From Phoronis australis (Eukaryota > Animalia > Phoronida): DNA of 64,000 bases. Under the pieces are notes generated by a model, which saw only the letters and a list, made by a program, of their open reading frames with translations, was not told the origin of the DNA and did not search any database. Positions 8,607-59,543 of this stretch are shown one piece after another. Position numbers and translations under genes: made by a program. The stretch is from NCBI GenBank assembly GCA_002633005.1, contig NMRA01000090.1, positions 985,453-1,049,452 of the forward strand. Direction: 5' to 3'. Every line of letters starts with the position of its first letter. Position 1 is the first letter of the stretch.

Positions 8607-11600
8607 GTAAGTAAAGTCTTGAGTAGGCCTGGGTGGCTACATTCTTCAGAAACTCAGTCGCGACTGAAGCGTAAGATCAAACACACGGCAACTCAGAACT
8701 CACTTAATTGTATGCGGCCGAGAACTAACGCGCGCACGAATTTACTTGCCTCCACGGAAAGCAATCATAAACTACCGGGCACCGTATTCGTTCTCAGTAA
8801 AACCCCGGAGCTGTATTTATCTCATTGTAAAACCCTCTCTCTAGGGGGCGCTCTGCATAACGTATTGCATTTGATTTTGAGAGTATAAAGCTTACGTCTT
8901 CTTTCGGGCGCTGTTATATAGAATGTAGCTGACAGCCTTCATCAAAAACTTCTCTACCATTTATTTACTACAAAGTACAAAGGTAAATAACTTATTGTTT
9001 TGCTGAAGTCTTCGTAAGTAGCATATTCGTTTTTAAGGTTTTGATGGCCGCCGGAAACGGGGAACGTTATGCTGCATTAGTCACTGGGAAAACCCAGGGT
9101 TTTCGGTAGAATCCAAACATTTAGTTTCATTTACTAACTAGGAAAAACCCATTGCAATGCTCCTGTCTTTCCACCATGGCGTTGACATTGAAGGTACGTT
9201 TGTATAAAGCTAATCAAGTTACAGCCGAATTACAGAAGTCACATGTATGTGAATTGAAATAGTTTGTTTTTAAACGACGCAAAAGCCAGGCGACAGGGGA
9301 AACTAATTATAGACGTCATGAGTCACGACAGTTTGAGCCTTCCTTGTTTGCTACCGTTTCGTTACTCGCATCCGTTTTATATCAGTATTTCTCTTCCTGT
9401 TGAAGTCGTCAAATGTCAACCATACTGTGTACAGAGGGGCATACAGCTCAACTTGAGAGGATGATCTCTGTTCTAAAGTGCTGGCTTCGGAGTTCAGTGT
9501 TGTACAGCTGTCTAAACGGTGACCACCGTATCTAGATAGCCGCAGTAGAGATGGTGAAGCTTTTATAGGAGTTTCATATGCCAGAAGATTTTCGGCAAAC
9601 TATGCCTCGCACGGATGTTCTCATAAGATACTTTTGGCGCATAGAGGGATAGACACATTAGGAGGCAGTCAACGTCTTAAATAATTCTTTTGAACTCGAA
9701 CAAATACGCCCAAAATGAAACATTTTCTTCAAGCAGGCCAGTTTTGATACTTGCGTGCAGTCTTAGCGATGACATAGGAGCGCGTGTACTTTAAAATGGC
9801 CTGTTGCCGATTTGAGCAACTGAACGAAGGACTGTTGGAGTTGGAAGGTTCCAAGGTGTCCCTCTATGCGCAAAAGGTACTTACAATAACATGGTTTTGA
9901 TGATTTAATCAGTGTGAGGCATAATTTGCCAAAAAGCTTCCGGCATAGGAGCTTCACCGTGGCCAGCTATAGACGGTGGTCACTGTCTAACAGCTGTCTA
10001 GACAGTGCAGTAGAGATGCCATGATGCTCCCATAGGACCTTCATACAATGGAAGCTTTTCGATGAATTATGCCTCACACTGATTAATCCATCAAAGTCAC
10101 ATTGATATATTATTACCATATGCACATAGAGAGGGACACCTCGGGAGGCCATGGATGTCTTTGATTCCTTCAAACTCGAAAGAATACTCCCGTTATCAAG
10201 CTTTTTTCAAGCAGTCATCATTATGGTATTTCTTTGGCAATAATATCACGTGTGGATGTCCAAGGCGTAGAAGTGATGACCCTGTAATAGGAATTCTGAA
10301 ACTGATTTACCAGGGCATCAGTGACATAAACAAGTACACCCTCGAAAATATGAGTACACTTATAAGTATAATATTGACGTTACTCGTATTATTCGGTAGT
10401 ATTTGAACAGACACAGAGCAGATGTTCTGCGTTTTTCATCACATTTGGCTAGTGTATGTCTGGAAAGAGTGCAGAATATGCTTGTATTGAGCACTGTTTC
10501 TGTTTTAAATTGATTCTAATAAAGAATACTAAACAATATGCAGTCTGGAAACAGTTTCCTTTGAAAAAAAGATTGGAATTGATGGACACACTGACAAAAC
10601 TGCAGTTATCTTCTTTTAATTTTTGTCTTAAAAATGCACTAATTATAGGTCATTGACCAAAATGTTGTTACCTTACTTTTTGTAAGAAAAGTTGTCTGTC
10701 AACAGATGTTATGAGCTATGCAATGCATCGCTGAAATGGAAAGGAATCATCCCAGTGAAAAGGGTTCAATCGATTTATTTTTGATTGATAAAATGAAGGG
10801 TTCAAATTTAGAGCAATCTAAGGGGAAAACTCTACATGTTATATTTTTACTTTTGCTCGTAAGTTTTGAGACAAGAAGCTAAAAATGCTAGCTAGTTCAT
10901 TTTAATGTGTCTTAAACATGTGAAAGTTTTTAACGTCTTTTTGACTTAAGCCAGTACACTGACAAATCTATTTCAATTTCCGTTTTGTCATGAACATAAT
11001 GCAAATTATATAAGTCAGCTGACCAAAAGAAGAAGTTGAATGTGATGTTGGCATAAGAAAACAAGTCTGGCAGCAGACATTGTATCATAGAAAACTGGTA
11101 TGCCACATGGCGAAGTAAATTGCACTGGTAGTCATAGTTAGTAACATTGGAAGGGAAGACAAGTGTTAGTTCTTTATAATTTTCTAATTGTATACCTAGC
11201 AATCTAGCGCAAATCCCAATATTCAAATGAAAATTGAGGTCGCCAAAATTGAACTCTGATCTTGGCCGTTTTTTTTTTGCCAAACAATTCTGTCTTCAGT
11301 CTGTTTACTTTCTCACGTAGTTTAAGTGCTTATTTGATGATATGTGCCAACTAATAGTGAAGGTGGAAAGTGTTGAGTTCACAAAATAATATGAACAGTT
11401 GTGAACCAAAGGTATTGTAATTAAAGTTTGGAAGTCCACACAACTTTTTAAACGGATTTTGCATGAATTATTGTCTGACTTTTATACTTGCTGTGGTGCA
11501 TTCATGGTGACTTGGGATTTTTCCAGGTCGGCAAACACAATCTGAAGTCGTATTGATGAGCTGCAGGTTGCAAAATCGAGCACAGATATTGTAGATAGTC

Positions 11601-14600
11601 TAGCTCATCAATTTCATCCGGGTTCTAATGAGTTATGCATGAAACATCATTCCGGTAGTGACGCTCGTGAACCAGCTTGCCGAAGTCATTCGTGGCCATC
11701 ATTGTTTAAAAGCACATCAGACTGTGTTTGCCACCAGAACTTTAATTTTCAGTCAGTTTGGAGTACTACAGCACCTCTAGTGGCCGTTTTGTGCGATTGT
11801 CCTGTTGTTCAGATGTCTGGTTGATATCTCATAAACCACAAGGGCATGCTAATGGTATTTGAAACAAGGGTATAAGGCATCACTGAGCCAGTGCATGTGA
11901 CTCTCAAATCAACCCTGCCCATCATGGCCAGAAGGGTAGGGCTTAGGAGTGTTTTTGAGCTGAAACGTTTTCGAATATCTGGAGAACGGATGTATAGCTT
12001 TAAGTTAGCTTTGTCTCAATGATTTGTGACGATAATGCATCAGCTCCAGTCAATTTTGAGTGCTCAGATTCGACCTTTGCAGAACCCTTTAGTAGCCTGG
12101 TCTTTATCTATGGGGAGAGAGCTTTTCTGGAGAACCAATTGACCGCTTACACTGAGTCTTTACTTTCACATGTATTTAGTCTTATCAACCAATCATCATT
12201 TTTGGCTTGAGACACTTTTTATGTTTCAGGGACTGTTTGTTTTTCCTCTGAACTGCACTAGTGTCTCCTGTCCTGGCCCACAATGCAATGTGGTTCTCGC
12301 TTTTCACGTGAGTACCTGAGATTATGTTCTTTTTACAACTTTGATTTAATTTAATGTAGAATTTGTCACTTGACACAGACTTATGGTTGCACAATTTAAA
12401 GAATAAACTAAAGAAATGGAAATCATTGTTTTGTTTCTTTATTAGGCCAAAACCCATAATTGGTTCTGGACTGGTTTTTTGAAAATGGAATTGGTGGACC
12501 GGGTTCAGTTGTTTTTTGAGTTGCTCACCATTTCAAGAAGGAAAATCCACGATCAAAAATCATGTGTGATTTTTTCATGCATTACCTTAAGCAAATCAAG
12601 TCTTTTTACCCTTGCTTACGTACCTGGGGGCAGCTTTTGTTTGCTTGTCCGCTGTTATGTGCCCTCGTGTAGTAACACCGTGCAGGATGTTAATGAGATT
12701 TTGCAGAGGTGCTCCTAAAGGTGGATGAGCACAATTTTTGGAACCATATGATGACCACTGCGTCCCCTAGTAGCAATTTTATTTTACATTTCAGTAACTC
12801 AGTAACTATTGTATTCTCGGCATTTTTTCCATGATGAGATTTAATTATTTTTCTAATTGTGTGGAGTAAGGTCATATTTCTTTCTTGAGTCTTTAAGTCT
12901 TTTTCTCTGAGACAGACCCTTGGAGTATCTAACTATGTGTCTGTTACTTCCTTGTAGTCGACTCTGTGCAGCCTGTTGGTGACAATCTTCTAGACAATGA
13001 TGCAGGGTATGCTGTACCTGATCACAGAATGGTGCTTAACTCAGGTGAGTTTCCCTGGTTGGATGATGGAATTCGAATTGGGTGGTCTTAAAGGCGTTAT
13101 ATATCTGCATGTTATTAAGAGATAACATTTGGATTTTTATGTGTCCACATTGCTGTCATTTGTGTTCAGGTGTCCTGTGTCCACTGCTGTATCTCCTGAA
13201 TCCCTTGCCGTGGTAAATTGAGATTTCACAGATGTGCTCTCATCAAAATGACAACAGGACGAAGAATTTTCGAGCCGTCACACTTCTGCTGTGTTCCCTA
13301 TTGGCAATTTTAGTTTTTTACGTTTGTCTCTGTATCGTTGGAGTTCCTTGATGGATGTTCATGAAATCCGATCTTAGATATCTGTTAAGGTGTTGGCGAT
13401 GCCTTCCCATTTTCGGACAGATTAGCCGTATCTTGCTTCACCTAATGACTCTGTTTCTAGGCACCCTGATAAGCAGAGTTCCCTTATGGTTTTTCATGAA
13501 ATTTGGTAAATCAGTCTCTATTATGAAGACAACAATGCTTTGCAATTTTTGAAGAGATTTGATGGATTCTATCTGTGCTGCCTAATGGCCATTTTTATGC
13601 GCCCACATATTTATATGTGGACGCATTATGCCGTCATCTCTGTCCGTCCGTCCGTCCGTCCGTCCGTCCGGGCGGCGTCCGTCCGGCGTCCGGCGTCCGG
13701 CGTCCGCTGCTCTATCTCGAAAACCCTTTGACATACGTTCATGAAATTTGGCACATATGTTCCATTCATGAATGGGACGGCATGTGCGAACTTTCGGACG
13801 GATCCGACTACCGGTGTGCCCCCTAGTGGCAATTTTAGTTTTTTACGCTTACCTTTGTATCTTCAAAAGTATTGAACGGATTTTCATGAAATTTGGTATG
13901 TAGGCACCTATTAGTGAGATGACGCTATCCTACTGTTTTCAGATGGATTCGACGTAGTTTGCGCCACCTAGTGGCCATTTTTACTGTTTTCGAGTCTGTA
14001 TTTTTGCGTCCACCCCTCTATCAACCAAACCGCTCAAAGGATGATTGTGAAAATTGGCGTGTATGTGCTTACTATAAGGAAGACAGCTGACAATGATTTT
14101 CAGACGATTTGGACTACTGTGGCGCCTCCTAGTGGCAGTTTTGTTTTTTTGCGCCCATGGCTGTATCTCCCAAACCGTTTGCAGGATCTTTACTAAATTT
14201 AGCAAGTGTATTTATGTGATGTTGACAACGGACGATGACGACTTTAGGATGATTCTGATTACCGGTATGCCTCTAGTGGCAATTTTAGTATTTGCCTCTA
14301 GTGGCAATTTTAGTATTTTACATTGACCTCTGTATTTTCATAGGTCTTCAGGTGTATACTTTGTGTTACTTCGTGACTGTGAAGGAAAAGTTCCTAGTAG
14401 AAATTTGTTTCTGGCATTCTAATGCTGTGCTAATCTCGTATGTTGGTAAATTTGTTTTTAATTCTATGTTTCTGTGGTGCTTTAAGCAACTGGTGTATAG
14501 GATGTGCTTGTATTATGAAGATTACTCACATTTTGCCCCTAGCCTATTGAGGAGACAATGACCATGCCTTTCCATTTTGCAAAGTATGCCCTCTACTGGC

Positions 14601-17600
14601 CACTTTATGGTACCAATAAACAACCCTAGAAGGATACCGTATGCGGTGCAATTGTGGGCGCATTTCAACGCTCCGCGTTGCTCTTGTTATTCTTTTTGAG
14701 CTCACCTGAGTCTATATCTGCCAAACTGCTCAAGATCAATATCAAAATTGGCAGATGTGATCCCATTGATAAGAGCACGGCTGACATTTGATTTCATATT
14801 GGTCTGTCTACTTTGGCAGCCTCTAGTGCTACTGTCATATTTCATGGAATTCAGCAAATTCATTTTTCATTGGGATGACTACGCCTTCCCATTTTGAACA
14901 AGTTTGATGTGATATTTGTTGCATGTCTAAGTGGTTTTATCTGACAACCCTTAACATTTCTTGACTATCCTGACTGGCCCTGAACTCAGAAGTTTATTTT
15001 TGGGACAAATATGTGGTGTGGGAACTTTTGCAGTTTTATGACAAAATCACAGATGGAAATTTCAAGTAAGAAATCCCTGCAGCTTGCTCCTTCAACTCAT
15101 CGCTGCTAACTTTCTAGATCAAGATACACTTCCAATAATTTTGAAGAAATTAGAAAATTTTGTTGCACAAACAAAAAAGAGCCACTATAAAATCGTTATA
15201 ATTTGTTAACTTTGAAACTTAAAATGTGGTTCCGAATGCTTACGTACATTTTTTGGACAGTTGAAACTCCACTTGTGAGTCCGAATCCTGAACAAGTCGT
15301 GATGTACTAGTAACATCGTTGACAGAAATTCTAGCTGCTATTGCTTTGATCCCAGAAGTCAAGACAAATTATCATCAACATATCTGTCTAAATTTTGCCT
15401 CAACCTAGCCCGACGGACACATCAGTGAGCATATGGGTAGCCCAGTGTGTCCTGGGTGGGGTACTGATCTTAAAACCCCTAACATTTGGTGGAGTCTTGC
15501 CCATTGTACTGGCTGGCACTATTACATGGCTATGACTCAAAGTGCATGGCAACGAATGGGAAAGTATCTCCATTTTATTAAAAAAAAAACAGGCAAACTT
15601 GCTTTCACAAAGAACCTGTTGACCAATAAGAGGGCTCCCGTGAATTTTAGCTCCAATGTTTTGTGTAATAGGCTCAACCATGAGGCCTGGGCACGTCTGA
15701 TGCACTGCAAAAGACATCAGACCGTATGCAGTTTCTTTTTAAATTTCAGGGAGAATATTGCTCTTTCATTAAACTTTTTACTGCCAAATGAAAGACTAAC
15801 ATAAAGTAATTTTCTGATGTTGCAAATTGTCATTAGTGGCATTTTTATAGCTAAAACGTAGCAAACCAGATACAGTGGCCAAAAGCTGATATTGGCATTC
15901 ATGTGGGTCATGTTTGAAGTCTCCAAAAAGTGACGTCAGTGAAAGAGTTGCAACGATGTCTAACTGGAAAGCATACAAAACTGGGGTTTTGACTACAAAT
16001 GAATATTAACACCAAATTAACACTTAAATATTTGCATTAGAAGAATTCACTGAAGAACTTTGCCAGTCAGTCAGTTTGATTAAAGTTCGACGATTCTAAA
16101 TACAATGGACAGTCATGTCTAACTCTTTGAGCGTAGTAATGATGGACAGTGGGATGAGGCTGTGTGTCTTGAACCACAGAATCCAGTTTGCGACACAATA
16201 TAGATAAGTAGTAGCTGAACACTTGGGGAGAGGATACTAATTTCATGATATCTGGTGACTGAAAGAATGTATGAGGCATAGTTTGTGAACAAAAGGCAGC
16301 TGCGCTGGTCTAATTTTGGGGAAGCTATCGCTTTCTATGGTTATATACATCCTTACTCATTTTTCTCTGCAGGCGGAATGGCAGGTTTGAAGCCATTCTC
16401 CAGTCAATGCATTAGAAACCAATAACTGCAGTGCTTGCATTAATTCCAGCCATTAACTCAGGAGTAACGAATTATAGATTATTGTTATTTCCCATATCTT
16501 GACCCCAAGTGCGATTTTGAGGATTAGGGTAAATACCTGCTGAGCACGTGTACTAATTTATTTATCCACATCTTGACAATAAACTCTTACAAAACTCACG
16601 AATATTTAAATGCAGCTATATGCAGCGTAGTGTATCAGCGTAGTGTATCAGCGTAGTATATCAGCGTAGTGTATCAGCGTAGTGTATCAGCGTAGTGTAT
16701 CAGCGTAGTGTAGCAGCGTAGTGTATCAGCGTAGTGTATCAGCGTAGTGTATCAGCGTAGTGTNNNNNNTAGTGTATCAGCGTAGTGTATCAGTGTAGTG
16801 TATCAGCGTAGAGTGTGTGCGTAGTGTAGCAGCATAGTGTAGCAGCGTAGTGTAGCAGTGTAGTGTAGCAGCTAGTGTATCAGCATAGTGTATCAGCATA
16901 GTGTATCAGCGTAGAGTGTGAGCGTAGTGTAGCAGCATAGTGTATCAGTGTAGTGTAGCAGCGTAGTGTATCAGTGTAGTGTATCAGCATAGTGTATCAG
17001 CGTAGTGTATTAGCGTAGTGTGTGTGCGTAGTGTAGCAGCGTAGTGTATCAGCGTAGTGTATCAGTGTAGTGTATCAGCGTAGTGTATCAGTGTAGTGTA
17101 TTAGCGTAGAGTGTGTGCGTAGTGTAGCAGCGTAGTGTATCAGTGTAGTGTATCAGTGTAGTGTAGCAGCGTAGTGTATCAGCGTAATGTATCAGCATAG
17201 TGTATCAGCGTAGTGTATCAAATCAGACACTTGAGCGTCTTCTATCACGGAACATTGCAACATGTCCGTTACGTTTCCTGACAACCGTTATCTCTCATGA
17301 GAGATAACTCTATGGGTTATTACCTTGTAGTTATTTACTGTTCAACTTCAAGCAGATAAATGCTAATATGATGAAAAAGGATTTCATTTCTATTTCATCA
17401 AAGTCTGTTTAAGCAACTTTTCTCATCAATCAACACAACTTTTTCAGTTTCCAGTGGATCTAGTGGGTATGCTTCAGATCTCAGCCGCCAGGTGTCTCAA
17501 GTCTCAAATGAGCCGGAAAACAATATTGTCGATAGCGTCAATGGTCCCTTTGGTGATAGCGAAGATGACAATGATCGCCCTGTAGATGGCATGGTTTTTT

Positions 17601-20600
17601 ATGCTGCTCATGATTATGACGATGCTGAGAAATGGATTGAAGATATCAGGGAAAACGTCAAACTTAGAAATGGTAAGATTCTTGGCAGTTTGAGCATTGA
17701 ACATTTCTCCTGTCATTGTGCAAAGTTAGAGAGAAGGCCTTTCCAAAATATTCCGTAATTGCTGACCTCTTAAAATTTACGTATTGTTGTAACCAGCATA
17801 GCTTACTGTCAGGTTCAAGCTTGTGACTGCTTAAACTTCATTGGAAGAGTAAATATCGAAATTCAGTGCTTCACACTTAGCTTGACGCCAAGATCTGAAG
17901 GTGCATTTGACGACTTGGCAAAAATCGCAGGTCACCAAACAAAATCTGAGGTCGCCAAAAACTGACATTGAAATCGTCAAAAAAGGTCGTGCCATACTCC
18001 GTTCTTAGAAACTTTTGCTTACCTCTCCAATTTCTCCCCGAAAAAATGCGTACCATTTACTCTTTTACTCATATGCCACTGGAGATGAAACGCAGGCGAT
18101 CGCATACACTGGAGGCACGTGTTTCACCGATCTTGCTCGATTTTTGCTGAACAATTCCGACATCTGTCTGTTTACTTCCTGTTGTAATTTAAGCACATGT
18201 TTAATGTTTAACGTGTGCTGACTGTTGTGATGGCAAATGCACTGATTTCATGAAATAAATGGAACAATTGTGAATCAAAGATAATAAATCTAAGAAACCT
18301 GTTAGCAATTTAAAGTTTAGAAGTCAACACAACGGATTTTGGGGGAATTACTGTCTGACTTTGGTACTTGCAGTGGCGACTTTGTGGCGCCTTGGGATTT
18401 TTCCTAGGTCGCCAAAACACAATCTGAGGTCACATTGGGGACCTGCCGGTCACCAAATTGAGCACTAAAATTAAACCAAACCTTTTTTCAGGAAAACCTC
18501 CCGAATTTCGATTATTTGAAGTTAACTATGGAAAGAGCAAGTTTCATGAGCTGGATAAGGCAATGCGTCGCAGTACATACTGGTTGTTTTATTTGACATC
18601 AGAGCCGGACCCTTTTATTTTGAAAGCTCGTGACGAGTGCCTAGAAGAGGCCTTGTCAAACGAAGACCGTAGGTGGTCCATAATACCGATTTTTACTGCA
18701 CCAAAAGACAAGTTGTCAGTGCCTTCTGGTCTAAAGTCTATAGCTGGCATTTATACAGTTAGCACAAATATTAAATCTGTGTATAGCAAGATGAAAAAGA
18801 CATTCAATGAAAAACTCTACGAGAGGCTTGAGAGAGAGGAGCGTTGGAGGACTGAGAAACGGCAGACACAGATGAAAAAAGCAAACATGAAAAAGATGGA
18901 TGAGATACTGGAACGGGAGAAAGCGAAAATTAAAAGAGATGATGAGTTGAGAGACAAGCAGATAGAATTTGAAAAGGAAATGAATAAGGTTAAGCATAAA
19001 CATGCGCAGATGGAGGCTGCTCGAAAGGAGGAACGGCGCAGGGAGCAGCAGAAGTTGGCAGCAAATCCAGTGATTGGTTCATCTGCAATGAGTGGTGTTC
19101 TGGTAATTTTGAGTCTTTGTTGGCATGTTTTTACGAAATTTTTCTCTTGTTATTCTCTTTTTCATTGCTATACTTGACGGTGATTCCTTGAATGCATTGG
19201 TGATGTGTCAGGCATAGGAGCTGTTGCAGCTGATTTGAGTTGATTTCAAGTTGTGGCACATATCCTTGATGTATTCAATTTTTGCATCTTGTACAGTAAA
19301 TTCCAATAACAGGCAGACAAAATGATGTGGAATTCTCTGTCAAAATGACTGAACTTAAGTGTAATAATGCCCCGTCATTACAGCTAAGTGCTAACGGGAT
19401 TCACTGCCAGAGTGCCTGGAATGAACCGAAATGATGGGAAAACAAATTTTTGTCCAATTACTTCTGTGTAAGTCAACAATAAGTTTTCACCAATTCTAGT
19501 ACGGTTCAAGGCAGCCCTGGCTGCTGTCAATTCTAGATTGCTCTGAGTCTTCTCATAATTTCGGAACAACACTCACTCTTTTATTGACACATTGTGTATT
19601 AACCGTGATGTCAAAGTGAAGGCATGCACGCTACTGTAAGGGAGATATTTGTGAATTTTTTTAAGATTAGTGCAGACTGAGCTTTAGTGGTTGGATATGG
19701 TTGGTTGTGAGGACAGTTTGCATTGACTGCTGTTTCTGGTAAAGAACACCCTCAAATAATTCAACATGTCTATATTTTTCAGCCAAGAGAGACTCAATGG
19801 GATGGGGTGAGTGATCAACTCAACAGAGCTCCTGCTGATGTCAGGGGAGGTAACTCCCAGTCTTCACATTGTCACGCCAATGGAGCCTCAGACACCACTT
19901 GCACGGGTGAACGGGATGTGCCAGAGAGTCCTTTACATGGTACATATACATTAGTCACGATTGTTTTGATTTGTTAGAAGTGCTGGGCCCTCAATGCTTC
20001 GATTTTGGGACTGAATGTCGGTCCCATTCCCTTCTGAAAATATTTAAATTCATGAAAATCACCCCAATCAGGCCCAAACATTTCCCTGTGACAAATGATT
20101 AAAAGAATTCTCCTCAATAATGAATCACTTCTAACTCGGGCAGACTCTCGAATTCAAAAGGTTTTAATCTAAAATCTCCACTTCTAAAGCCGTGCCTTAT
20201 TTGAGTTTACTGTCTCGATGTGGAGAACACAATAAAGATTAGTCTATCTCAAGTATAGGTGTGATCACATAGTGTTGAGCAAAGGAAGTCAAGACTGAAT
20301 GTTGTGGCGACCAGGGCTGGAATTGGTGTTGATNGGAGGGGGGGTCTCTCTCAATAAAAAATTCTTTTCTCAGAAGGCACAGACATCTCCCCCTTAGGTG
20401 GGCGTGAGTTTCTCATTGCGTAATTGCTGTTTTAATCTTATTTCTCGTCACTGCAAATTTATTTTGATGACAGTAACTAACTACAATTAATATTATGTTA
20501 AAGACATTTTTCAGACTTGTTTGTTGCAACTTCCATGTTGCAGCTAGAGCACTGCTACAAGCAGACAACATTTTTGAAAAATTGTTGGCAACAACATATC

Positions 20601-23600
20601 AGAATAGCACTTGAAAAACGAGAAATGCAATTTTGCAATTATTTTTGTCCGAAATTGGTGAGATTTTACTGTACTAGGTCTAGAATAATTTTGCCTGATT
20701 ACACACGAGTATGAACTCTTATTTAGGTTTACTGAGAGCCATTGAGCCAGCTGTTAAAGATGGTGGCAACCTAACGGTCAACATAGAAAACCTGCAGATT
20801 GGGAACAACAACCAGGTGATGAAGACATCCTGTGGAGACACAGCAGGTGACAGGGACGGGGATGAGGATGTGGTGTACGTGCGTAAGGACACCAGCCATG
20901 ACCCCCGGTGAGTCGGCGGCATCTGTGCTGGCATTAGCGCGTGGGTTACACATTGTCTCCTATTAATTACAGTAGCAAAGATTGTGGTTAAAAGTAGTCC
21001 TGAGAGCAATGGACTCTTACTGTAATTTCTCTGCCCTTTAATCATTCATTTGTGATTGTTGTCCAGCTCTTTGTTTTGTTGGCTGTTGTTGGAACCAATA
21101 GTCAGAGTCTTGCTTTTATTTCAGTGCTGCGAATAGTCAAGAAGCAAGTGAACAGACATTGGTGATATCTAGTGTTCATAAAGTTGATAGGTGAGTGGGA
21201 AATGTTTGTCAAGATCTTGAGACAACTGTGTCATAAACAGTATCCAGTCACAGGTATACCCAAGATCTGCCCAGGCATATATTTGCCAGCACCAGGTATA
21301 CTCAAGATCTGCCCAGGCATATATTTGCCAGCACCAGGTATACCCAAGATCTGCCCAGGCATATATTTGCCAGCACCAGGTATACCCAAGATCTGTCCAG
21401 GCATATATTTGCCAGCACCAGGTATACCCAAGATCTGCCCAGGCATATATTTGCCACCACCAGGTATACCCAAGATCTGCCCAGGCATATATTTGTCAGC
21501 ACCAGGTATACCCAAGATCTGCCCAGGCATATATTTGCCAGCACCAGGTATACCCAAGATCTGCCCAGGCATATATTTGCCAGCACCAGATCATGTTACA
21601 ACCTGGCCCGGTTGGTTAATGTCAAGTGTTCACCTGTCGTGTGGCATTGCAATGGTGGATACCTGGCTGCTCCAACTACATGTAGGTATCCATCAAGTTG
21701 ACTTTCAGTGATTGCTAATGCCCTTACTAAAGTAAATGCGCTAAGCTTTTGGACAGCCTTCAACAATGAAGGAATGCCGCGATTTAGCTAGGAGGTTGCA
21801 AATCTTGGGCATATAGTTAGAGAGTTACATCACCTCTGGATATCTATACCTGGATTTAATCATGTCTTGTGGCTTCTATATGAAACTGTGAAATTGCCCT
21901 TCAGTTCAAGCCATAACCCCTAAAAAGCTCAAGTCTATAATATTAATTAATTCTACATCAATCCTTTATTTTTTTCAAATTTTGGTACATTTAAATTTCA
22001 GTCCACAAATGGTCTTTCACAACATTTAATTATTCACGACTGTTTGCGTCTCTATTTTTTTCCAAAAGAAGCAAAACTTGGAATTTTTCTCAACATTCGG
22101 TGGGTTTGCTTTTTTGTTCACCCTGTACGATGACTGGGAATTCTGTTTCATCTTGTTGGACCACTTTTGGCAGGCACTGTATTTTATTCTAATGGCCATA
22201 ACACTTCAAGTAACCATTCATTTGGTGGCTCATCAGTTATTGACTCAAGACCAAGTTTGCTTCCGTAATAGGCCCTAAATATGGGTAAATTTGGAACATC
22301 ACATTTCAAAAATGGCTGATTGTATTCTTGTGAATCTTCCAGAGACTACACATTGTTCTCCAAAACACTGTTGGGAAGTGCTATAAAAACATTGTAACAG
22401 TTGAAAATAAGACCTTTCTGATTTCCATGACAAAATGAAAACAAAACGATAATTTTAGAAAAGTGTAATCTCACTCAGCATTTATGGGGTCTCATAATGA
22501 ACATTTACACGAAGTAAAATATTATTATGTTATTGATATCATTGTTTTGCTCTCAGTGGTTTTACCTTTCTTTATACTTAATGTTACTAAAAAGATAAGG
22601 TTAATATGCGACTCAACTAATGGCAGATTGGTACATGAAATGTCAAAGACCAAATTTTAAGGCTTTCTGCTTCTAGAAAACATATACTGCAAACCTCACA
22701 GATACAGACAAAATGCAATTTAATTCGGAAATACCAAATACGAAAGTAACATGAAAAATACCTCAATACTGCCGCTCCCTGGCTCTCCTCACTGATGCCA
22801 AATATGCACTGCCACAATGTGAGTAAATCGAGTCAGCGCACAACTCTTATACTGAAATGAGGGTCGGGTCACATGCAAATTACATTCAGTCTATTCATCC
22901 ATGAATATACACGTGACCATGAGCCACCCGGAGCAAACAAACGTGAAGTATCTTACAATAAAGTTTTGTAGATATTTGACTAAATACACCAGTGAGGTAA
23001 TTTAAGTCTAACAAAATTCCATCTGCCTTTCAGTGATCGTTTAGATGATGCCTGTATCACCAGTGTGAAGAGTACTATGTCCAGTGGTGTGGTGGCGAAC
23101 GTTGCTGGCGCGGAGGCGAGTCTTGCCCCAGGGTTGACCACATGTACAGAACAGAAGGTTTTAAGTCCCAGAGAGCAGCATGAAAACACAGGTGAAATAG
23201 ACTGGCAGATGATGCTGCCCTCTGTTGTTTTCTGGACTCGCTTATTGAATTTTCAGGGATCGAAGTCTGCAGACTGTAATGAGTGTTTGACATAATGTTG
23301 TCTAGTTTTGAGTTTTGACAAAGATTTTGTAATTTCAACCTGGAAATTGGTTATGTTACTGCGATTTGATATCAGTCTGAACTTAAATCAACCGAATGTA
23401 GTTTTTAAAAATGGCGACAATATTGCTTCTCATCAAAACTGAGGAAATTTCGGAACCAAAAATTTCTGTTAATATTTGTATGAATTAGTGTACCAATTAT
23501 TCTTTCTGGTTCAAAATGTTTCTTCTTTGTTACAAAGGTTTTTTCCATACAAATAATTTTTATCATGGCTGAGATTTTGTAGCAATTCAGTTAGCCCTTG

Positions 23601-26600
23601 AAAAGAGGAAATACTGCAACATTAATTTGGGCAATTATTTTTGTGTGAATAAGAAAAAGTCTTAAAACCTAACTTTGAACCTTTGTGTGTGAAATGTATT
23701 GAGACAGTGCAAGTTAAGCCAACCGTTTTTTAATGCAAAATACTTAATATGTGATGGGATGATACAATATGCCGTAACAAAGTTCGGAGTTCATCTACAA
23801 AATCACATGTCCAGTGTTACCAAAGTAACGAAATTGCCTTTGTAGCCTTGCAGTAAAACTTTTGCACCTGTCCAGCAACATGAACAGAAAGTTAAAAAGT
23901 GCATAACATCAAAATATGACAACTATCCAAATTGATATACAGTACAAATTGATATACAGTACAAATTGACATACAGTACAAATTGATATACAGTACAAAT
24001 TGATATACAGTACAAATTGACATACAGTACAAATTGACATACAGTACAAATTGACATACAGTACAAAGTAATTCAACTGGACAATGTGGACTGTTGACTT
24101 TTTTATTACTTTTAGTAAAATTGTAATGAACACGTCAGGCCTTTCCCTACAGTGTGTCCGGGGCATCCAAAAGGAAACTAGATTCAAATTTAGATACCCA
24201 GTTAGAAGACTCTGTTCAGCATTTGAAAACCCAAATAACTGAGCAACTAAGCATTGGCTCCTCTTACTAGCTGCAGCTCAGGGACCAACAGTTCACTTAC
24301 CTGTCCAGGATAAAATAGTTGGTTTAGAAATGATGGAAGACACAAAAAATAGTGCACATCAACCATTTTTTCATGGTAACATACCACAGTATAACAGCAA
24401 TATGATTTGAGATTATAAAATGCTGCTGTGCATTATTGGTCAAGGACGCCCTGAGAAATTGAAAATCTCATTTTGCATGCCTTATTTTGAAACCCTGGAT
24501 GAACCGCTGAATGAACCTCTTGTTTAGTCTGGAGATTTTCGTAGTTTAACTGTGAACAAATTTCTGTGCTTTGTCAGCTTGCTTTGCAAATTTCCTGTGT
24601 GGATAGTAATAATTTCTGTGTTAACATTCATGTTGGCAACACATGCAACAGGATGGGAAGGAGATGAGATCAAACAAATTGGTATCTTTGCAAATACGCA
24701 ATGTGATATGCAGTTTATTTTCAACTTTAGCGTATGTGGAGTCACTGAAGATGATACAGACAAAGTCCGTTCCTGACATTGACGTTGGAGACCCAAAGAG
24801 CTCCAAGTCTTGCAATAGTGCTGTCTCATCTCCTTTCATGGATGGGATGTCCACTCAAGGCGGGACCAGCATCGAGGGTACTTCGGTTAAGGGTTTGTGT
24901 CTGAGCGGCTCTGGGAGTGCAGACATTGCTGATGGTGGAGCTGATGTTCAGAGGGAGACTCCATCGCACTATATCTGCCAGGCGGACGAAGATCCTGCTA
25001 ATCAAGCAGAGATGATGGCCCAGAAATTAGGTAGGAAATGTTCACGGTGAGAAAGGCATGCCCTCTGGTGTAGATTATGCCCGGGTACATGCTTTTTAAT
25101 TTAAAGCGAGAAATAATTAATGATCCTGTGAGCACGGTTCAGTGCCTACAGTCCAAAGGCTGTATTGTATAAAGGTTCAATAGTTGGACAGCAATAGTCG
25201 ATGTCTGTTTAGTTCAAAGACTCCATAATTTGAAGTTTTTATTGGGTGAAAGTTATATAGTTGGTTCTAGAAAACATTCAAAATATAGACAATGTTTAGG
25301 TCACAGACTGCAGCGACCTCTACAGTAGTGAAGTAGAATCTCAGAAAATAAGAGTGTGTTACGAGCATTTTCAGAAAATTGGAAGCTTGAGGATGAAGAA
25401 GTAATTGTCACGTTTGCCAGTCGATACAAAGGGATGGATCTCAGTTTTTGCCAAACAGGTTTACCAATGCGTAAACTGTAAGTTAATTGCTGCGGTCAAT
25501 TCGCAGGCGAGTAGAAATCATGTTCTGTAATCCCTAGTGGCGACAAGTTTTATATTTGATCGCACTTCCATTTTGTAGTCGCTCATGGCAGCTTCGGGGT
25601 TGCAAAGTTATGTCCTGCATGTGTGTGTGTATGTGTGTGGGTGTGGGNTGTGTGTGGGTGTGTGTGTGGGTGTGGGTGTGTGTGTGTTTGTGTGTGTGTG
25701 TGTGTTTTCATGCCCTTGGGAAGGTGCAGCTGTGTCCAAATCTGAGCACTTTTGTCTGTTTACCAATTTTGCATTGTATTGTTTTGAATTGTGTCGATAT
25801 TGAATTGTGTTGTATTGAACTCTATTGTATTTTATAAAGTATTTTCTTGGACAAACAATATTTAATCAAACATATTAAATCAATCAATAAAAAATATGAA
25901 ACATGTCTCAAATTGGTTCACAGTCAAATTACAGGTGATTTCTGGACATAGAATTATCTGGCAGTTATCGCTTAAAGCTTTTGGTTATCTGGATTGGCCA
26001 TGGACGTACTTTTTTTGCAAAACTATCCTAAAAAGCATGGTTACATGACCTAATTAATACCAAATTGGTGTAGAGTCAAAAATACAATTTCAAGGAATTT
26101 CTACTCTCGGAAAACATATAATTTTGCAGAGTTAAATTTGATGTTTTAGTTGATATTTTCCTAAGTGTACAGACTTGGCGACAAGGTCCTACATAACCTT
26201 AAATGTGCGCTAGTGAAGTTGGCTAAGTATCCATTACGGTGCCAAGAATTGATAAAACTGCATCAAAAACATCCAGGTGTATGACCTCCTCATTTGTGCA
26301 AGAGTCACTATAACTGCATCTGTTGATGACACTTGGTCTGCTCCCACCCACTCTGTGGAAATTAAAAATAACCTATTTCTGGTACACGAGATGTAATGTA
26401 AGGATTTATCCCAGCATCTTTCGATCTATTTAAGGTAACTACGAATTGCCAGTCAAAGTACGTTATGCTGGCGTGAACAAAGAATCAGGCACCCCCCAGT
26501 CACTCACATTCACTCAGGCGTCCGTCGATGAAGGGTCCCCGTCTTTGCCATCGTCTGCCTTCCCGACAGTCGTCGATGCACATGGAGAACAGGACACGTC

Positions 26601-26964
26601 CGAGCCAATCAGAATACCAGGGAATGCTGACGAATCATTGCAAAGACACACAGCATGCAGTTATGACATCGGCTGTTCATCGTCAGAGGCTTCTGGAAGA
26701 GGAGAGGAATCTAATGTAAATTGTGAGAGCAGTACTACTTGGTATCGTACACTAGATGATGCTAGTGATCTAAATGGTAGCATGTCACCAGGACAGACAG
26801 CTAGAAGTGAGCAAACGGAGAAACAATGTCTTGACCCATTGAGCCACAAACGCCAGTATTTGACAACAGAGGGCACTCACGCTGAAACTGAACCAGGGTC
26901 AGATGTTGTTGAGGATAGCAGATCAAAAACAAATGGTGGAGGCAAAAAATGTGCGATAATGTGA
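8576..26964 (+). CDS. TRIF/TICAM-like cytoplasmic adaptor: TIR + coiled coil + TRAF6-type motifs + RHIM + C-terminal CaaX (about 730 aa, 8 exons)
   Basis: Exons 8576-8606, 17448-17672, 18492-19102, 19783-19939, 20727-20907, 23034-23191, 24731-25030 and 26435-26964. All introns are GT-AG with matching phases (1,1,0,1,2,1,1). Total 2193 nt = 730 aa + stop with no internal stop. The TIR (GMVFYAAHDYDDAEKW...DKAMRRSTYWLFYLT...WSIIPIF...KTFNEKLYERLEREERWRTEK) resembles the TRIF TIR and its trailing helix. Exon 1 is the least certain. Confidence 0.82.
9086..9104 (+). promoter_or_regulatory. Candidate NF-kB/Rel site GGGAAAACCC within the inverted repeat GAAAACCC-A-GGGTTTTC
   Basis: Matches a known Rel/Dorsal-type site. 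Lies about 480 bp into putative intron 1 of the TIR adaptor gene. Function untested. Confidence 0.35.
9503..10215. repeat. Three diverged copies (+,-,+) of a unit of about 200 bp forming a long inverted repeat
   Basis: GATTTAATCAGTGTGAGGCATAATTTGCCAAAAAGCTTCC (about 9902-9940) is the reverse complement of GGAAGCTTTTCGATGAATTATGCCTCACACTGATTAATCC (about 10050-10090). 9503-9735 is a direct copy of 9990-10215. Confidence 0.7.
11230..11585. mobile_element. Partial copy of the 17864-18467 MITE family
   Basis: TAAAGTTT.GAAGTC.ACACAAC...TGTCTGACTTT...TTGGGATTTTT.C.AGGTCG.CAAACACAATCTGA is shared with 18310-18430. Confidence 0.65.
13592..14688 (+). mobile_element. Helentron-associated non-autonomous element (HINE/DINE-1-like)
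   Basis: Starts in a T-run. Sub-TIR ATGCGCCCACA (13597-13607) lies within a 5' hairpin, followed by a (GTCC)n microsatellite and internal degenerate repeats (CTAGTGGCAATTTTAG). The inverted sub-TIR TGTGGGCGCAT is at 14653-14663, then a 3' stem-loop CAACGC-TCC-GCGTTG and CTCTTGTT. Confidence 0.85.
15400..15725 (+). mobile_element. 5'-truncated 3' fragment of the same LINE family
   Basis: ATGGGTAGCCCAGTGTGTCC...TTAAAACCCCTAA and GCACGTCTGATGCAC.GCAAA match 37915-38185. Confidence 0.75.
16623..17220. repeat. 13-bp minisatellite (CAGCGTAGTGTAT)n containing an assembly gap
   Basis: Read directly; about 45 copies with variants; N run at 16764-16769. Confidence 0.95.
17448..17672 (+). CDS. TICAM-like adaptor exon 2 (SSGYAS motif, acidic linker, start of TIR)
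   Basis: TTTTCAG acceptor and G|GTAAGA donor. Open frame SSGSSGYASDLSRQ...GMVFYAAHDYDDAEKWIEDIRENVKLRN. Confidence 0.85.
17864..18467. mobile_element. Non-autonomous DNA transposon (MITE) in intron 2 of the TIR gene
   Basis: Ends CAGTGCT...AGCACTA are flanked by an AAATT direct repeat. Subterminal GGTCGCCAAAA repeats. A second partial copy lies at about 11230-11585. Confidence 0.7.
18492..19102 (+). CDS. TICAM-like adaptor exon 3 (TIR core + E/K/R-rich coiled coil)
   Basis: TTTTTTCAG acceptor and CTG|GTAATT donor. Lies within ORF 18458-19177. Confidence 0.9.
19783..19939 (+). CDS. TICAM-like adaptor exon 4 (begins PRETQW, a TRAF6-type motif)
   Basis: TTTTTCAG acceptor (phase 0) and G|GTACAT donor (phase 1). 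Confidence 0.8.
20727..20907 (+). CDS. TICAM-like adaptor exon 5 (RHIM motif)
   Basis: TTTAG acceptor and CG|GTGAGT donor. Encodes GGNLTVNIENLQIGNNNQVMK. Confidence 0.85.
21250..21588. repeat. 42-bp minisatellite, about 8 near-identical copies, intronic
   Basis: Unit ACCAGGTATACCCAAGATCTGCCCAGGCATATATTTGCCAGC. Confidence 0.95.
23034..23191 (+). CDS. TICAM-like adaptor exon 6
   Basis: CTTTCAG acceptor (phase 2) and G|GTGAAA donor (phase 1). Encodes DRLDDACITSVK...SPREQHENT. Confidence 0.78.
23928..24067. repeat. 17-bp minisatellite (AAATTGAYATACAGTAC)n, about 8 copies
   Basis: Read directly. Confidence 0.92.
24731..25030 (+). CDS. TICAM-like adaptor exon 7 (low-complexity, symmetric phase 1-1)
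   Basis: CTTTAG acceptor and G|GTAGGA donor. Lies within ORF 24643-25050. Confidence 0.78.
25620..25705. repeat. (GT)n/(GGGT) microsatellite
   Basis: Read directly. Confidence 0.95.
26435..26964 (+). CDS. TICAM-like adaptor last exon, ending in CaaX box GGGKKCAIM*
   Basis: TTTAAG acceptor (phase 1). Frame is open to TGA at 26962-26964 (ORF 26446-26964). Confidence 0.82.
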
Positions 26965-32367: not shown

Positions 32368-35300
32368 GTAAGTTGAACATCAGACATACAGATGGCAGAG
32401 CCAGAAAAGTTTGGAGTTAAGCCAAGTTGAGGGCTTGGAGATACCTGAGCGACCGAAACCGAGCTAATATCACTCTATATCACTGCTTGGCCCAAGGCTA
32501 TTTATATACGAGAGGACACGATGCAAAATTCAACCTTTGAGCATAATCTTGACATCCGATCACGAAGAAATGCTTAAAATGAGGTTCCAGTGCATGAGAA
32601 CGTAATTTATTGACATATCGCTCAAGAGCTAAGAATACTGCCTTAGGCATTACAATTCCACGGTGGCGGCAGGCGGCCATCTTAGATTTATCGATGACGT
32701 AAGCAAAACTTAATATGCCATACAGTGTTATTCCTGAACACTCAAAACTAGTCTGAATTTATATGTAAAGATGCCTTGAAATATTTGACCTTACTGTACG
32801 TATCTTTGTGTGGCATATTGTGAGCTTGACCTTTTCGCGTGACCTTGACCTCCAATCACAAAAGTAGTATCGGAATCGATTTTATCATACCTGAAAACCC
32901 ATAGTTTGATGCTCATTTTTAAAGGCATTTATGAGGACTTTCCAATTTAATCAATATGGCCGATATGGCGGCCATCTTGGATTTGAGGGTTATGCAGGCA
33001 AAATCCAGCTCCATATATAACTTTTCTGGATTAAGCACCCCAAAATTTGTTGAAATCAATCATCAGATCTGCATTACATCCAAAAGCCCTCGACAGTCAT
33101 TTTTTTGTCAAATTGGAACCTGACTAACATTCATGCGGTATAAGCATTACAAATGGTCTATACTTTTTAACAAGACATGGAACCACCAGCGTTAGGTACT
33201 TTGCACTGCAATATAACGGAAATTGGGCAATTTTCATCAGATATCTGTCCTCATTGACATAATTGTTCCATCAACCTTCCAGGTAGTTCCAGTCGTCCTT
33301 TCTCAGGTTGCCACCATCTGCAGCGCCATTGCTATACTAGGCACACCGGCAGAGGTCGTCTTGAACGGTGTTGGGTACTGCGCCTTCTCCTTTGGAATCT
33401 GTCTAGCCGGCGTCTTCAGTGCATTTGTTATCGTGCCACTCTTCTACAAACTACAATTCACAAGCATACTTGAGGCAAGTTGTCCTCTCCGAAACTAACG
33501 ATATTAACAAAGATGCTCATTTCAAGATTTGGTGCACATGTATTCAAGTGTTCTACATGTATTTGTGCGCCGACATATAGGCCTTCATATTTTGTGTTAC
33601 ATGTATATAAATATCGTCTGTGTTTGTGCGTCAGGAGTCTGAGCGCTCAAGACTGTATCTCCTAGTATACTCCTGGACGGATCGTAATAAGATGTGACAG
33701 GCCAGTGACAGATGGCAACCAGTTTTTGCCCCTTTTGACAATCTTAGTTTTTACGTTTTCCTTTACATGTATATCTTTTGAGGTCCTGGATAGATTTCCG
33801 TGGCAATTACATTGATATGAAGAGAACGATTTTACCTACCGATCCTCGGACGGATTCTGCTAATTCTACCAAATTTGCCATTTTCACAACTTTTTGAGTG
33901 CATTTCAAGGCGTCCCCCCTTTAGCTGCCAATCCTCGTTGAGGATATGTTTGCGGTGTATACTGGCAAATGTATTCCTGCTGAGAAGACTACGGCGGACG
34001 TTAATTTGCGGGCGAGGTCGTCTAATGTGGCGCCTTGCAATACCGTCTTTTTGGATGGCTGTAACTTCAGAACACCTTAATAGGATTTTTGTGAAAGTGG
34101 CACAAATGTTCCCCAACAAATGCCATGACGTAGGCCTATGACTTTCAGACGGAACCGGGCTACTGCTGCTTTACCAGTCAGTGACAAGTTTGTTTTTACG
34201 GCTACATGTCTAAATGTATCTTCAGGGACAGATTTTCCAATAATTTTGCAATCAGTTCTTTATTAGGGAGACGACTTCATTTTGGTATTGATTCGACATA
34301 ACCTGCGCCACCCAGCAGCCATTTTGTTGTTATTGTCGGGTTTTTTGCCTGCCATATAGCTGCCAAACTGCTGGAGGAGTCATTTTGGAAATTTTCACGC
34401 GTGGTTCCGCTGAGAAAACCACAGCTTACATGTACATTGATTTTGGAACGAGCACAGTGAGCGCCTCCTCGTGGCAATTTCATTTCTTGTATCCGTTCAT
34501 GGCTTATCTTCCTCACACCACCGCAGTAAATTTTGCCAAGAATTTCCCTACAAAAATGAAAACCAATGACGACAACATTACGACGGATCCGACTACTTCT
34601 TTGTTTTACCATTTGTTCCAGTCGCACAGTGTCGGGTGACTGAGAAATGTGCTGTGATTTCAGCTCACCCTCAAACAATTTAGAATTTAAGAACAAATGA
34701 TTTGATGACAACTGTTGTGGATCACATCTGTGGAATTTCTAGCAAACTTGCATTCAGAATATAGTCCCGAGTTGTGTCGAAAATTGGCAGGAAAGTGACG
34801 GTTGTAGGCTGAAGCGTACTGTCAAATTTGAGTTTTTGTCACATTTGCTCTGGCCCTGGCTTCCTTTTTGGGGCAAATTATGGGACAGGGCAACATGCCC
34901 GTGGTTATGTGCAGCGCTTTCCAAGGGAAATGACTCGCTGCTTTTAATTTGGGTCATGGTCTTTTCGAAATGTGTGGAAGAGAAAGGCGCAAAACTACGC
35001 AAGTGGTAAGCCTATGTGCCAAATCAAAGAGGACTGTTTACACTTTCTATGATAACCCAAAAATCCACGATTTATGCCCACATGGGTTACTTTTCCACCA
35101 TAAAATCCCATTATCTCTACTGTAACAAGAACCCGTTACGCTTTCCATTGTTTTCACTGCAATTTTGATTCCTTTCTTTCAGTACTTCGAAATGAGGTTT
35201 TCGAAGGGCATACGGTTTGCCACATTTCTCATGGTAGTGCTGGTTAAGGTTCGTGTTGATGTTTCTTTGTTAAATTTATGTCTGTTTTCTATAGAATTAA

Positions 35301-54825: not shown

Positions 54826-55364
54826 TTAATGGTACGGGACCTGTTTTCTGAACCTCTTTTTCATCAAGCACGAAGGCTTAGATGAACAATCGTTGACATT
54901 AACTGAACAGTTTCTGCCTTCAAAACCAGGAGGACATGAGCACTTGTAGTCGCCAATGCCATCAACACAGATTCCGTTGTTAAGGCATGGGTTTGTCGCG
55001 CACTCGTCGATGTCTGTTTCGCACTGCTTTCCAATGAACCCTGTCGGGCATATGCATTGGTAATCGTCCGTTCTGTCTACGCATGTTGCTTTGTTCTTGC
55101 ACGGATTTGACACGCAGTCATCCACATTATTCTGACAGAGATCGCCATCAAATCCCACTATGCACGAACACGTGGCCTTGTCACCCGCAGCGAAGCATGT
55201 ACCGCCGTTGCTGCAGGTCACCGTTTGGCAAGGATCCAGGACTGTCTCGCAGTGAACGCCAGAATAGCCCCGAGGACACGCACACTTGTAAGACGTGGTA
55301 TAAACTGTCGTATTAACTTGGTCCTGACATGTTCCACCATTTTTGCAAGGATCACTTGTGCAAG
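54826..55364 (-). CDS. EGF-repeat exon (Notch/Delta/fibropellin-type; 4 complete EGFs + a truncated 5th)
   Basis: Acceptor TTTTTTCAG with its AG at 55366-55365. Frame CTSDPCKNGGTC...CPRGYSGVHCE..CSNGGTC..GFDGDLCQNNVDDCVSNPC..TDIDECATNPCLNNGICVDG..GFEGRNCSVNVNDCSSKPSC, stop at 54826. Confidence 0.88.
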
Positions 55365-56902
55365 CTGAAAAAACGGGACACGCAAAATAGGCCTACTTGT
55401 AACCAACGTTCATGAACAAAACAAGAAAAAAAAACGTGATGAGGCACCTGGTGGTACTACTTTTTTTCTTACAATCCATTTTCATGGAGAAAGAAATAAT
55501 GATATAGAGATCTGAAAAAAAAAACAGTCTCCAGTTCCAGCATCAAACCTAAAATGTTCCAATTGGCCGGTACAGAAAGGTTTGACAATCAGATTGTTTA
55601 CTTATTCATCATCTTTGTATATTTAATATACACAAAATTGGACTGTTAAGAGGATAAACAATACTGAAGGGTGGGTGGGGTTAGCAATAAAAATTTGACT
55701 TCGCCAAATACCCACCTCCCCCATCGCCATAACTTCCACACGCTGTGTTATCACCAATTTTGGACCCCCCTCACAGGCGTGCGGATTTGGCTGTTTGAGG
55801 TGCATATCCTGGTAAGGCGGCCTCCAAATACTTGGGCACCCATTCTTCAACATCATATTACGCGCGCTACGCACTTAGGTTATGATTTTGACCTTTAAAG
55901 GTGCAAATGTAACGACTAAGCAACTGTACTGCGGCTGAGAACGCTGGAGAAACACCATGAGAAACAATTTCACCCGCTCGAGATTGTGTACACGGACCAT
56001 CGTCTTGTAAACTTCGATTATATTTTCGTCTATTTCTTAAAGTTGAAATGAAGCCCAGGATCAAGATTCACTTTAATACAGTCGTGTTTGGGGAAAGTTT
56101 ATTTTATGAGAGTCATGATTTGAAGGTACTCTTTGGCAAGGTGAGGTTCCAGGGTCCGTGATGCACTGCCTTAAGTACTATTTCAACATCCCTACTTGAA
56201 ACCATAGGCACATAAAGTGTATGGATGGCAATCGGATTCCCGAGTTTCTGATAGGCGAAATTCACCAAATGACGCCAAATACTTCTGAAACACCAATTTC
56301 TCAGATGTTCTTTTCAGATTATCCAAAATCTAGGGCATTTGTTTAAGAGTCAGATGATAGAACCCAAAGTTCAACCTGCCTCTAAGTTCATTGAAGTACC
56401 GCCAATCTCTTACAAGAATGTAATTGTAAAAATATCATCCTACGAATCAGTCGATTGTTCACGGGCGGCACAAAAAATGGGGGGGGGGGCGCTATAGCCC
56501 CCCTGCCCCCTATGGTGCGCCGCCCATGTGTTGTACATGCAGAAACACATACATGTAGATCTGAAACCAATGAACCTTTGCAGGTTACCAGAAGAAATTA
56601 TCCACCATACTTAGGCCGTTGATCTTGAATTAATCAGTTGTTATATTGTAAGACTTTCTGAAATTCGTAACTCTATGTAGAAATGTGTAGGCAATTCCTG
56701 AAGGCATGTAGCAGGCAGGTACTTGGCGAGCAACCGATATAGCACGGGAAAGGAGCACCACACGGAGTCTGCTGGTCACCTCACAAGGAATTTTCAGACT
56801 AAATTTATCCGTGTTAACATGAGTTCTGGCTAATTCTCATGGAAGCATGTTACGATTTATCAATTAAATTAATTTGCACTTTAGAAATCTCAGAAAGCTT
56901 TA

Positions 56903-59145: not shown

Positions 59146-59543
59146 CCGTAAAATTACGCTCGTAATTACGAGCGTAAGTTAAATTGCAAAAGTGTTGCAG
59201 TAAAATTACGCCCGTAAATTAAATGGGGGAAATGTCGCCGTAAATTACGCTCGTAAAATACCTTAAGAACGTTCCAAATTTAAACCAATCAGTGATGACC
59301 TAACATATCCGACTGTTGCTGGACAGCTCGTTCTTGCACAATCGCTGACATGGCAGCAGCGATTTCATCCGCCATGATTCAGCGCTCGTATCGTAGACAT
59401 GAAATCCGTCAGTAAATAAGTATTTCTATGAGCCCGCGCGATCGTGGATTGTAAAACCCAACGTCATTGGCAAAGAGTTTAAACTAAATTACGAGCGTAA
59501 TTTTACGCCGTAAAGAATTAAGTTACGTTCGTAATTTTACGGC
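59146..59543. mobile_element. Foldback/MITE-like element with repeated AATTACGCTCGTAA subterminal motifs
   Basis: GCCGTAAAATTACGCTCGTAA at the left and TTACGTTCGTAATTTTACGGC at the right, with several internal copies. Confidence 0.6.

Follow-up and report, generated by a model that had tools for sequence, protein, structure and literature searches.

Gene structure and expression

We analysed a 64,000-nucleotide stretch of contig NMRA01000090.1 (the window), in which an earlier note had pointed to a RHIM, an amyloid-signalling motif, on an exon of its own. The motif lies in a gene of 10 coding exons, which extends from 12283 to 26964 on the + strand and encodes 779 amino acids (aa) in a single frame that is open from the ATG to the stop codon. 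The peptide NLTVNIENLQIGNNNQVM is the translation of positions 20768-20821 (+); it comprises 18 residues (aa 383-400) with the core LQIG at 20792-20803. We confirmed it at exactly these coordinates, inside a spliced exon. We conclude that the motif is real and expressed and probably a true one of RHIM type, and that its gene, unmatched until now, resembles TRIF/TICAM.

The protein begins with an acidic, Ser-rich segment (aa 1-83), which is followed by an alpha/beta domain (aa 84-218) and a charged helix (aa 219-303). Past the helix come PRETQW (residue 317), the RHIM-like motif (aa 383-400) and a low-complexity tail that ends in KKCAIM. The tail amounts to 460 residues of low-complexity sequence, and about 380 residues follow the RHIM-like motif.

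GT-AG boundaries flank all nine introns of the gene model, and five of the nine joints were seen in RNA (reads of runs X2-X4 plus contigs of X1; four runs from two studies, under one species label). The first mate maps to the - strand in all joint reads, as expected for RNA from the + strand in most stranded libraries. The exons encoding the TIR-like domain, the linker and the RHIM-like motif are expressed from this strand and spliced together in one frame.

The RHIM exon itself spans 20727..20907 (+; aa 369-428, 181 nucleotides, phase 1 in and phase 2 out). A tttag acceptor (ag/GT) opens it at base 20727 and a gtgagt donor (CG/gtgagt) closes it at base 20907; both of its joints are confirmed by RNA. 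The joint 19939>20727 is covered by 15, 19 and 22 reads in X2-X4, and the joint 20907>21125 by 2, 11 and 10 reads, with a further 7, 7 and 0 (14 in total) from an allele with two other letters. An X1 contig contains both joints. The claim that the motif has its own exon holds only loosely. The exon is real and spliced on both sides, but just 18 of its roughly 60 codons belong to the motif. Being asymmetric (phase 1 to phase 2, 181 nucleotides), it would break the frame if skipped, and it is not a shuffle-ready modular cassette. A direct 20907>23034 joint was considered and rejected, because the RNA shows the exon at 21125.

RNA reads diverge several percent from the assembly. In the X1 contig, the RHIM exon carries no difference at any of its 181 positions, compared with 9/157 in the preceding exon (Fisher p 0.0009). 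Pooled over four other pieces, the contig shows 32 differences in 929 nucleotides (p 0.006), a pool that omits three shorter overlapping X1 pieces (4/79, 0/127 and 8/127 differences). The RHIM exon also holds none of the 40 differences listed out of 181 difference rows.

The RHIM-like motif

The motif contains the sole QIG among the 779 residues of the protein. It is followed by two free positions, an Asn and a further hydrophobic residue, and it is set in a disordered region. In common with the RHIMs of RIPK1, RIPK3, ZBP1 and TRIF, it has the Q-I-G core, the Asn three positions past the Gly, hydrophobic strands on either side and disordered flanks. It differs from them in having L as the first core residue and in not being detected by Pfam. 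The Gly-x-x-Asn-x-hydrophobic feature is present as GNNNQV followed by M, with the Asn in place. Its last position, V, goes slightly beyond the M/L/I set of the pattern [IV]Q[ILV]GxxNx[MLI] (PMC9440496). Unstructured flanks are a known RHIM feature (PMC4262963) and are found here, as judged from composition alone: large hydrophobics make up 33% of residues 361-400 versus 10% in 321-360 and 401-440. Among the 544 18-mers after the TIR domain, the RHIM-like one has the highest beta propensity, if only just (1.117 vs 1.114), and past residue 300 it is the 18-mer richest in V/I/L/M/F/N/Q. We take its upstream strand to lie probably one residue nearer the core than in vertebrate RHIMs, in line with the shorter spacing that the earlier note had remarked on.

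How often such a pattern arises by chance depends on where it is sought. Relaxed RHIM cores occur 14 times in the six frames of the window; two of these carry the xxN extension, where shuffled windows yield 0.72 on average (60 shuffles). The second LQIG-x-x-N match, near 44172 on the - strand, lies opposite the symporter gene described below, has stop codons on both sides and is a chance match, so that the short pattern alone is weak at the level of the window. At the level of the protein, chance matches are rarer. Of 20000 protein shuffles, 65 contained the core with xxN, 12 the core with xxNx-hydrophobic and 1 a fuller pattern that was devised once the motif had been seen.

The TIR-like domain

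The alpha/beta domain at aa 84-218 is probably a TIR domain, on weak but concordant evidence. Domain searches covered the exon 18492..19102 alone, which lacks the first strand and helix of a TIR. The nearest ESM Atlas neighbours of the exon are TIR clusters (0.88-0.91), all of them bacterial or without recorded origin, and all 10 of the best family-bearing matches share a family or clan. Two models were compared with known structures by Foldseek, with TICAM named as the expected family beforehand. For model 1 (the whole exon, predicted from a single sequence), TIR domains occupy ranks 1, 2 and 8, with AbTir and plant TIRs in the top rows, at non-significant E values of 0.58-0.99. For model 2 (the domain part alone, searched against 350,542 chains), the TIR of TRIF (2m1x) ranks first, with 23% identity over 101 columns; the TIR of TRAM (9dlg) is second and MAL is fifth of 28 rows, again non-significantly (E 3.0-4.5, probability 0.03-0.05).

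The RHIM-like motif follows the TIR-like domain, as aa 383-400 lie C-terminal to aa 84-218 with RNA-confirmed splices between them. Within the domain, the joint 17672>18492 is covered by 9, 10 and 9 reads plus the X1 contig. Among the 36 exonic differences listed, changes in the alpha/beta domain are synonymous in 6 cases and replacements in 4, against 3 synonymous and 10 replacement changes in the helix (18809-19063), which suggests stronger constraint on the alpha/beta domain than on the helix.

Helix, TRAF6-like sites and C-terminus

The helix of about 85 residues is 58% charged and is modelled with high confidence (predicted local distance difference test, pLDDT, 85-98). It varies strongly within the species, and the X1 contig has deletions of 9 and 6 nucleotides within it. 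A motif scan with the TRAF6-site pattern PxExx-aromatic/acidic identified two TRAF6-like sites, one of which is PRETQW at residue 317. In the N-terminal segment, SSGYAS (17459-17476, +) resembles a beta-TrCP phosphodegron and could control adaptor turnover.

A prenylation box has the form C-aliphatic-aliphatic-X at the extreme C-terminus and is preceded by basic residues. Here the last codons read KKCAIM and stop (26944-26964), giving a CaaX-type box at 26950-26961; the splicing of this last exon is predicted from the frame. A CaaX end arises in 12 of 20000 protein shuffles. From the sequence, we predict a C-terminal prenyl anchor.

Comparison with known adaptors

Vertebrate TRIF/TICAM-1 is among the closest counterparts. 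It combines a TIR with a single RHIM further downstream, set in a disordered region, a layout probably shared here; TRAF6-type sites occur in both, and the TRIF TIR is the top, non-significant Foldseek row. The two differ in several respects. The N-terminal domain of TRIF (TRIF-NTD) is absent here: just 83 acidic residues separate the start codon, itself preceded by an in-frame stop, from the TIR-like domain. A strict pLxIS ([NDQEKR]LxIS) does not occur in the 779 residues, the nearest sequence being TLVIS at residue 440. The core is LQIG, the presumed BB loop has no proline, and the protein has a charged helix of about 85 residues and a CaaX-type end. Its RHIM-like motif lies in the middle of the protein, whereas the RHIM of TRIF is described as lying near the C-terminus (687-695).

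With TRAM/TICAM-2, the protein shares a short N-terminus ahead of the TIR (here a probable one), the second Foldseek row and a likely lipid anchor. TRAM is described as N-myristoylated and as consisting of a TIR alone; here there is no Met-Gly start, and a RHIM-like motif and a predicted C-terminal anchor are present. Amphioxus TICAM (bbtTICAM) has a TIR and a RHIM and activates NF-kB through the RHIM and RIP (PMC6043800), with no interferon response (PMC6043800, PMC11788365). The likeness to this invertebrate TIR-RHIM adaptor, to which the route from RHIM and RIP to NF-kB belongs, is one of description, as no sequence match was obtained. The CaaX-type box and the roughly 380-residue tail after the RHIM of the present protein are not mentioned for TICAM in the excerpted text. 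According to PMC9440496, its own scan did not find the RHIM in lancelets.

A TRIF/TICAM-like adaptor as the favoured interpretation

On balance, we think it likely, although far from assured, that the gene encodes a TRIF/TICAM-like adaptor, predicted to recruit a RIPK1-like partner by RHIM amyloid. Here, the domain at aa 84-218 would be a TICAM-type TIR that binds a Toll-like receptor or another TIR adaptor. Receptor TIRs would template the TIR of the adaptor, and TIR filaments together with the coiled coil may cluster several adaptor copies. Clustering would gather the RHIMs and so nucleate a cross-beta assembly with a RHIM-bearing RIPK1-like kinase, while the TRAF6-type sites could contribute ubiquitin signalling. 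The output would be NF-kB, as for amphioxus TICAM, rather than interferon, because the TRIF-NTD and a strict pLxIS are missing. A prenylated CaaX-type box would hold the adaptor on the membrane, the role played in TRAM by myristoylation.

Partners of this kind exist outside vertebrates. Zebra mussel, Lingula, other spiralians and lancelets are reported to have a RIPK1 that carries a kinase, a RHIM and a death domain, and in zebra mussel RIPK1 the RHIM is required for full NF-kB activation (PMC12119088). The earlier note had proposed a RIPK- or IMD-like partner; the TIR-like domain in the same protein, which the note did not mention, argues for a RIPK1-like one and disfavours IMD.

Since RHIMs are already known in invertebrates (PMC4262963), the RHIM-like motif alone is not new. 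Reviews and genome surveys restrict TRIF/TICAM adaptors to chordates (PMC6043800, PMC4892480, PMC9334734, PMC6321704), and a paper on oyster explicitly posits an unknown adaptor. In the literature searched, whose scope excluded most subscription journals, we found no non-chordate TIR+RHIM adaptor and no CaaX-bearing or prenylated TIR adaptor. The novelty may lie in the combination of TIR, RHIM and CaaX-type box in a possible non-chordate; were the animal a lancelet, the gene would amount to a divergent member of the TICAM family. Genome surveys would tend to miss a TIR-RHIM gene of this sort, neither part of which Pfam recognises. If true, a prenylated TIR adaptor would add a mode of membrane targeting for adaptors of Toll-like receptors. 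A bolder proposal seems rather unlikely to us: that the gene encodes a non-chordate TRIF-type TIR-RHIM adaptor with a prenyl anchor, which would be the missing upstream partner of spiralian RHIM-RIPK1, and that an amyloid-based, MyD88-independent branch of Toll-like receptor signalling would predate the protostome-deuterostome split.

Points that weigh against this interpretation

Several results count against the TRIF/TICAM-like reading, beginning with the motif. We take the Pfam accession of the RHIM to be PF12721. The earlier note had suggested a search with a RHIM hidden Markov model, and this came back empty: Pfam RHIM gives no match at E<=10 with either the 60-residue exon or a 30-residue piece. 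Divergent short RHIMs are known to be hard to pick up by profile (PMC4262963). The ESM Atlas returned no usable match for the RHIM piece. The matches of this piece in the PDB are designed repeat proteins that add up weak matches, and we rejected them as chance. The strict core (V/I)-Q-(V/I/L/C)-G is departed from by LQIG at position 1, the consensus being given as (V/I)Q(V/I/L/C)G (PMC9444067). LQIG is, however, the natural tetrad in fish and amphibian RIPK3, and human RIPK3 carrying it activated NF-kB, below wild type, and supported ZBP1-dependent death (PMC12119088). The mismatch thus lowers the case for a canonical RHIM, not the case for a motif that works like one. A RHIM-type motif remains the best reading of the peptide, with a TIR-like domain upstream and a core that functions in RIPK3, although profile methods are blank. 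The invariance of the RHIM exon was spotted post hoc in one contig and includes synonymous sites, so that a shared haplotype accounts for it as well as selection does; another X1 piece elsewhere also shows 0/127 differences.

Sequence searches brought no relatives. Two shared-word homologue searches, which covered longer proteins only and whose queries did not include the RHIM exon, returned 0 of 1255 candidates at E<=0.001 and 0 of 148 at E<=10. None of 555 pattern matches in a metagenome scan was confirmed. On single exons, Pfam, NCBIfam and PADLOC detected neither TIR nor RHIM, and PDB sequence searches gave no TIR or RHIM chain. Not one single test reaches significance. The Atlas TIR matches share 117-146 of 256 features, where 170 are typical of the same family. 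Across the TIR part, the two fold models score poorly (pLDDT mostly 30-50), and VIA-align on the 28 rows of Foldseek found no TIR chain at Z>=2. KaiB is the sole VIA-align match among these rows (Z 2.7, root-mean-square deviation 6.7, 76 aligned). In the presumed BB loop, FEVNYG (register set by eye), the proline of the TRIF-type motif EDFxxPG (PMC7075850) is missing. On the side of the partner, PMC12119088 reports that RHIM-RIPK1 was not found in echinoderms, tunicates, cnidarians and arthropods, and a study of Aplysia found no RIPKs there.

Alternative explanations

The same parts could serve a feedback inhibitor, which would bind TIR adaptors and RHIM partners and keep them at a membrane but not signal. 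Amphioxus TIRA offers a parallel: itself an NF-kB target, it binds and inhibits RIP1b and TICAM (PMC6043800). The absence of a proline from the presumed BB loop is in keeping with this, as TRAM signalling is blocked when the BB-loop proline is mutated (PMC11788365), although the register of this loop was placed by eye. In the vicinity of a candidate first exon lie a kB-like sequence, GGGAAAACCC (9086), and two AP-1 sites (8191 and 9319), as would suit an NF-kB target. Such sites are short and common, however (17 loose kB and 22 AP-1 matches in the window, counted by strand), and this exon is itself unconfirmed. With an intact RHIM-like motif and two TRAF6-like sites in the protein, we regard an inhibitor as improbable. 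The candidate first exon, non-coding and within 8865-9330 with a donor at 8982/8983, shows low RNA depth on the + strand.

Alternatively, the peptide may be a chance Asn/Gln-rich stretch without RHIM function in the disordered tail of an orphan TIR protein. Orphan proteins with a TIR only are common in invertebrates (17 in Aplysia, and the ecTIR-DC class), the low-complexity tail is 460 residues long, another full match to the pattern arises by chance within the same window, profiles give no match, and the first core residue is outside the consensus. Against this stand the frequency of the motif in protein shuffles, 0.06-0.3%, its position downstream of a TIR-like domain that has TRIF and TRAM as its nearest structural neighbours, the invariance of the RHIM exon in the X1 contig and the function of LQIG in RIPK3; we give a chance origin a small likelihood. 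It is very unlikely, in our view, that a real amyloid motif serves self-assembly, for example of a NADase-type TIR, or a non-kinase partner (IMD-like, NLR or effector). Here one may point to the bacterial TIR_2 proteins among the Atlas neighbours, to AbTir and plant TIRs at the top of Foldseek model 1, to the diverse architectures of invertebrate RHIM proteins (PMC4262963) and to the phyla from which RHIM-RIPK1 is missing (PMC12119088). Model 2, however, favours the adaptor TIRs of TRIF, TRAM and MAL, a catalytic glutamate could not be placed, and the order of TIR and RHIM is that of TRIF.

Other exons of the gene

An exon with 5' untranslated sequence and the likely start codon lies at 12230..12307 (+; ATG at 12283), its 5' edge being placed from the acceptor consensus. 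An in-frame stop precedes this ATG, so that this form has no additional N-terminal domain. The joint 12307>12958 is covered by 21, 31 and 10 reads plus the X1 contig and leads into the exon 12958..13044 (+; aa 9-37), whose acceptor is thus RNA-confirmed. The next joint, 13044>17448, is spanned by no read and is predicted from phase and from the lengths of contig ends, which sum to 30 letters (13+17) and fit a direct joint given an assumed 30-letter overlap (31-letter words). A 12-nucleotide micro-exon with its own ATG at 16373-16384 was rejected, as this contig-end overlap would fit the direct joint. The exon 17448..17672 (+; aa 38-112) encodes part of the acidic, Ser-rich N-terminal segment and probably the strand and helix with which the TIR begins.

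The exon 18492..19102 (+; aa 113-316), with RNA-supported joints, carries the remaining TIR-like domain (to about 18808) and the charged helix or coiled coil (about 18809-19063). It is followed by 19783..19939 (+; aa 317-368), a disordered linker that opens with PRETQW and has RNA joints on both sides. Downstream of the RHIM exon, the 66-nucleotide exon 21125..21190 (+; aa 429-450) has an RNA-confirmed acceptor and a predicted donor. The tail exons 23034..23191 (+; aa 451-503), 24731..25030 (+; aa 504-603) and 26435..26964 (+; aa 604-779 and stop, with the KKCAIM end) are predicted from splice consensus and phase, and the last three splice joints likewise from reading frame and phase. Each of the tail exons and the 66-nucleotide exon is open solely in the frame required by the phase.

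Within the introns, a repeat element at 13300-14900 has a very high RNA depth, which in one orientation reaches about 1,500 per run; it is probably a dispersed repeat that many transcripts contain. Tandem arrays occupy 16623-17220 (13 bp x 46) and 21251-21589 (42 bp x 8).

The surrounding window

Observed/expected CpG is 0.78 across the window and 0.56 in the gene body. Such a pattern corresponds to the mosaic methylation of invertebrates and not to the global depletion of vertebrates. Rfam gave 0 matches.

Two further genes share the window. A multi-exon sodium:solute symporter (SLC5-like) gene extends over about 33300-51050 (+), as judged by eye; its exon 42277-42426 has a match to Pfam SSF (E 0.0012) that falls short of the curated cut-off. 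At 54826-62000 (-) lies a gene in which Pfam finds tandem EGF repeats and a MAM domain. Its EGF exon has no close relative among the 120 matches listed, whose best identities are 33-50% and come from across all animals. Broken frames at 36746-37763 (+) resemble, by eye, the reverse-transcriptase/RNase H end of a decayed retroelement of the type without long terminal repeats (non-LTR).

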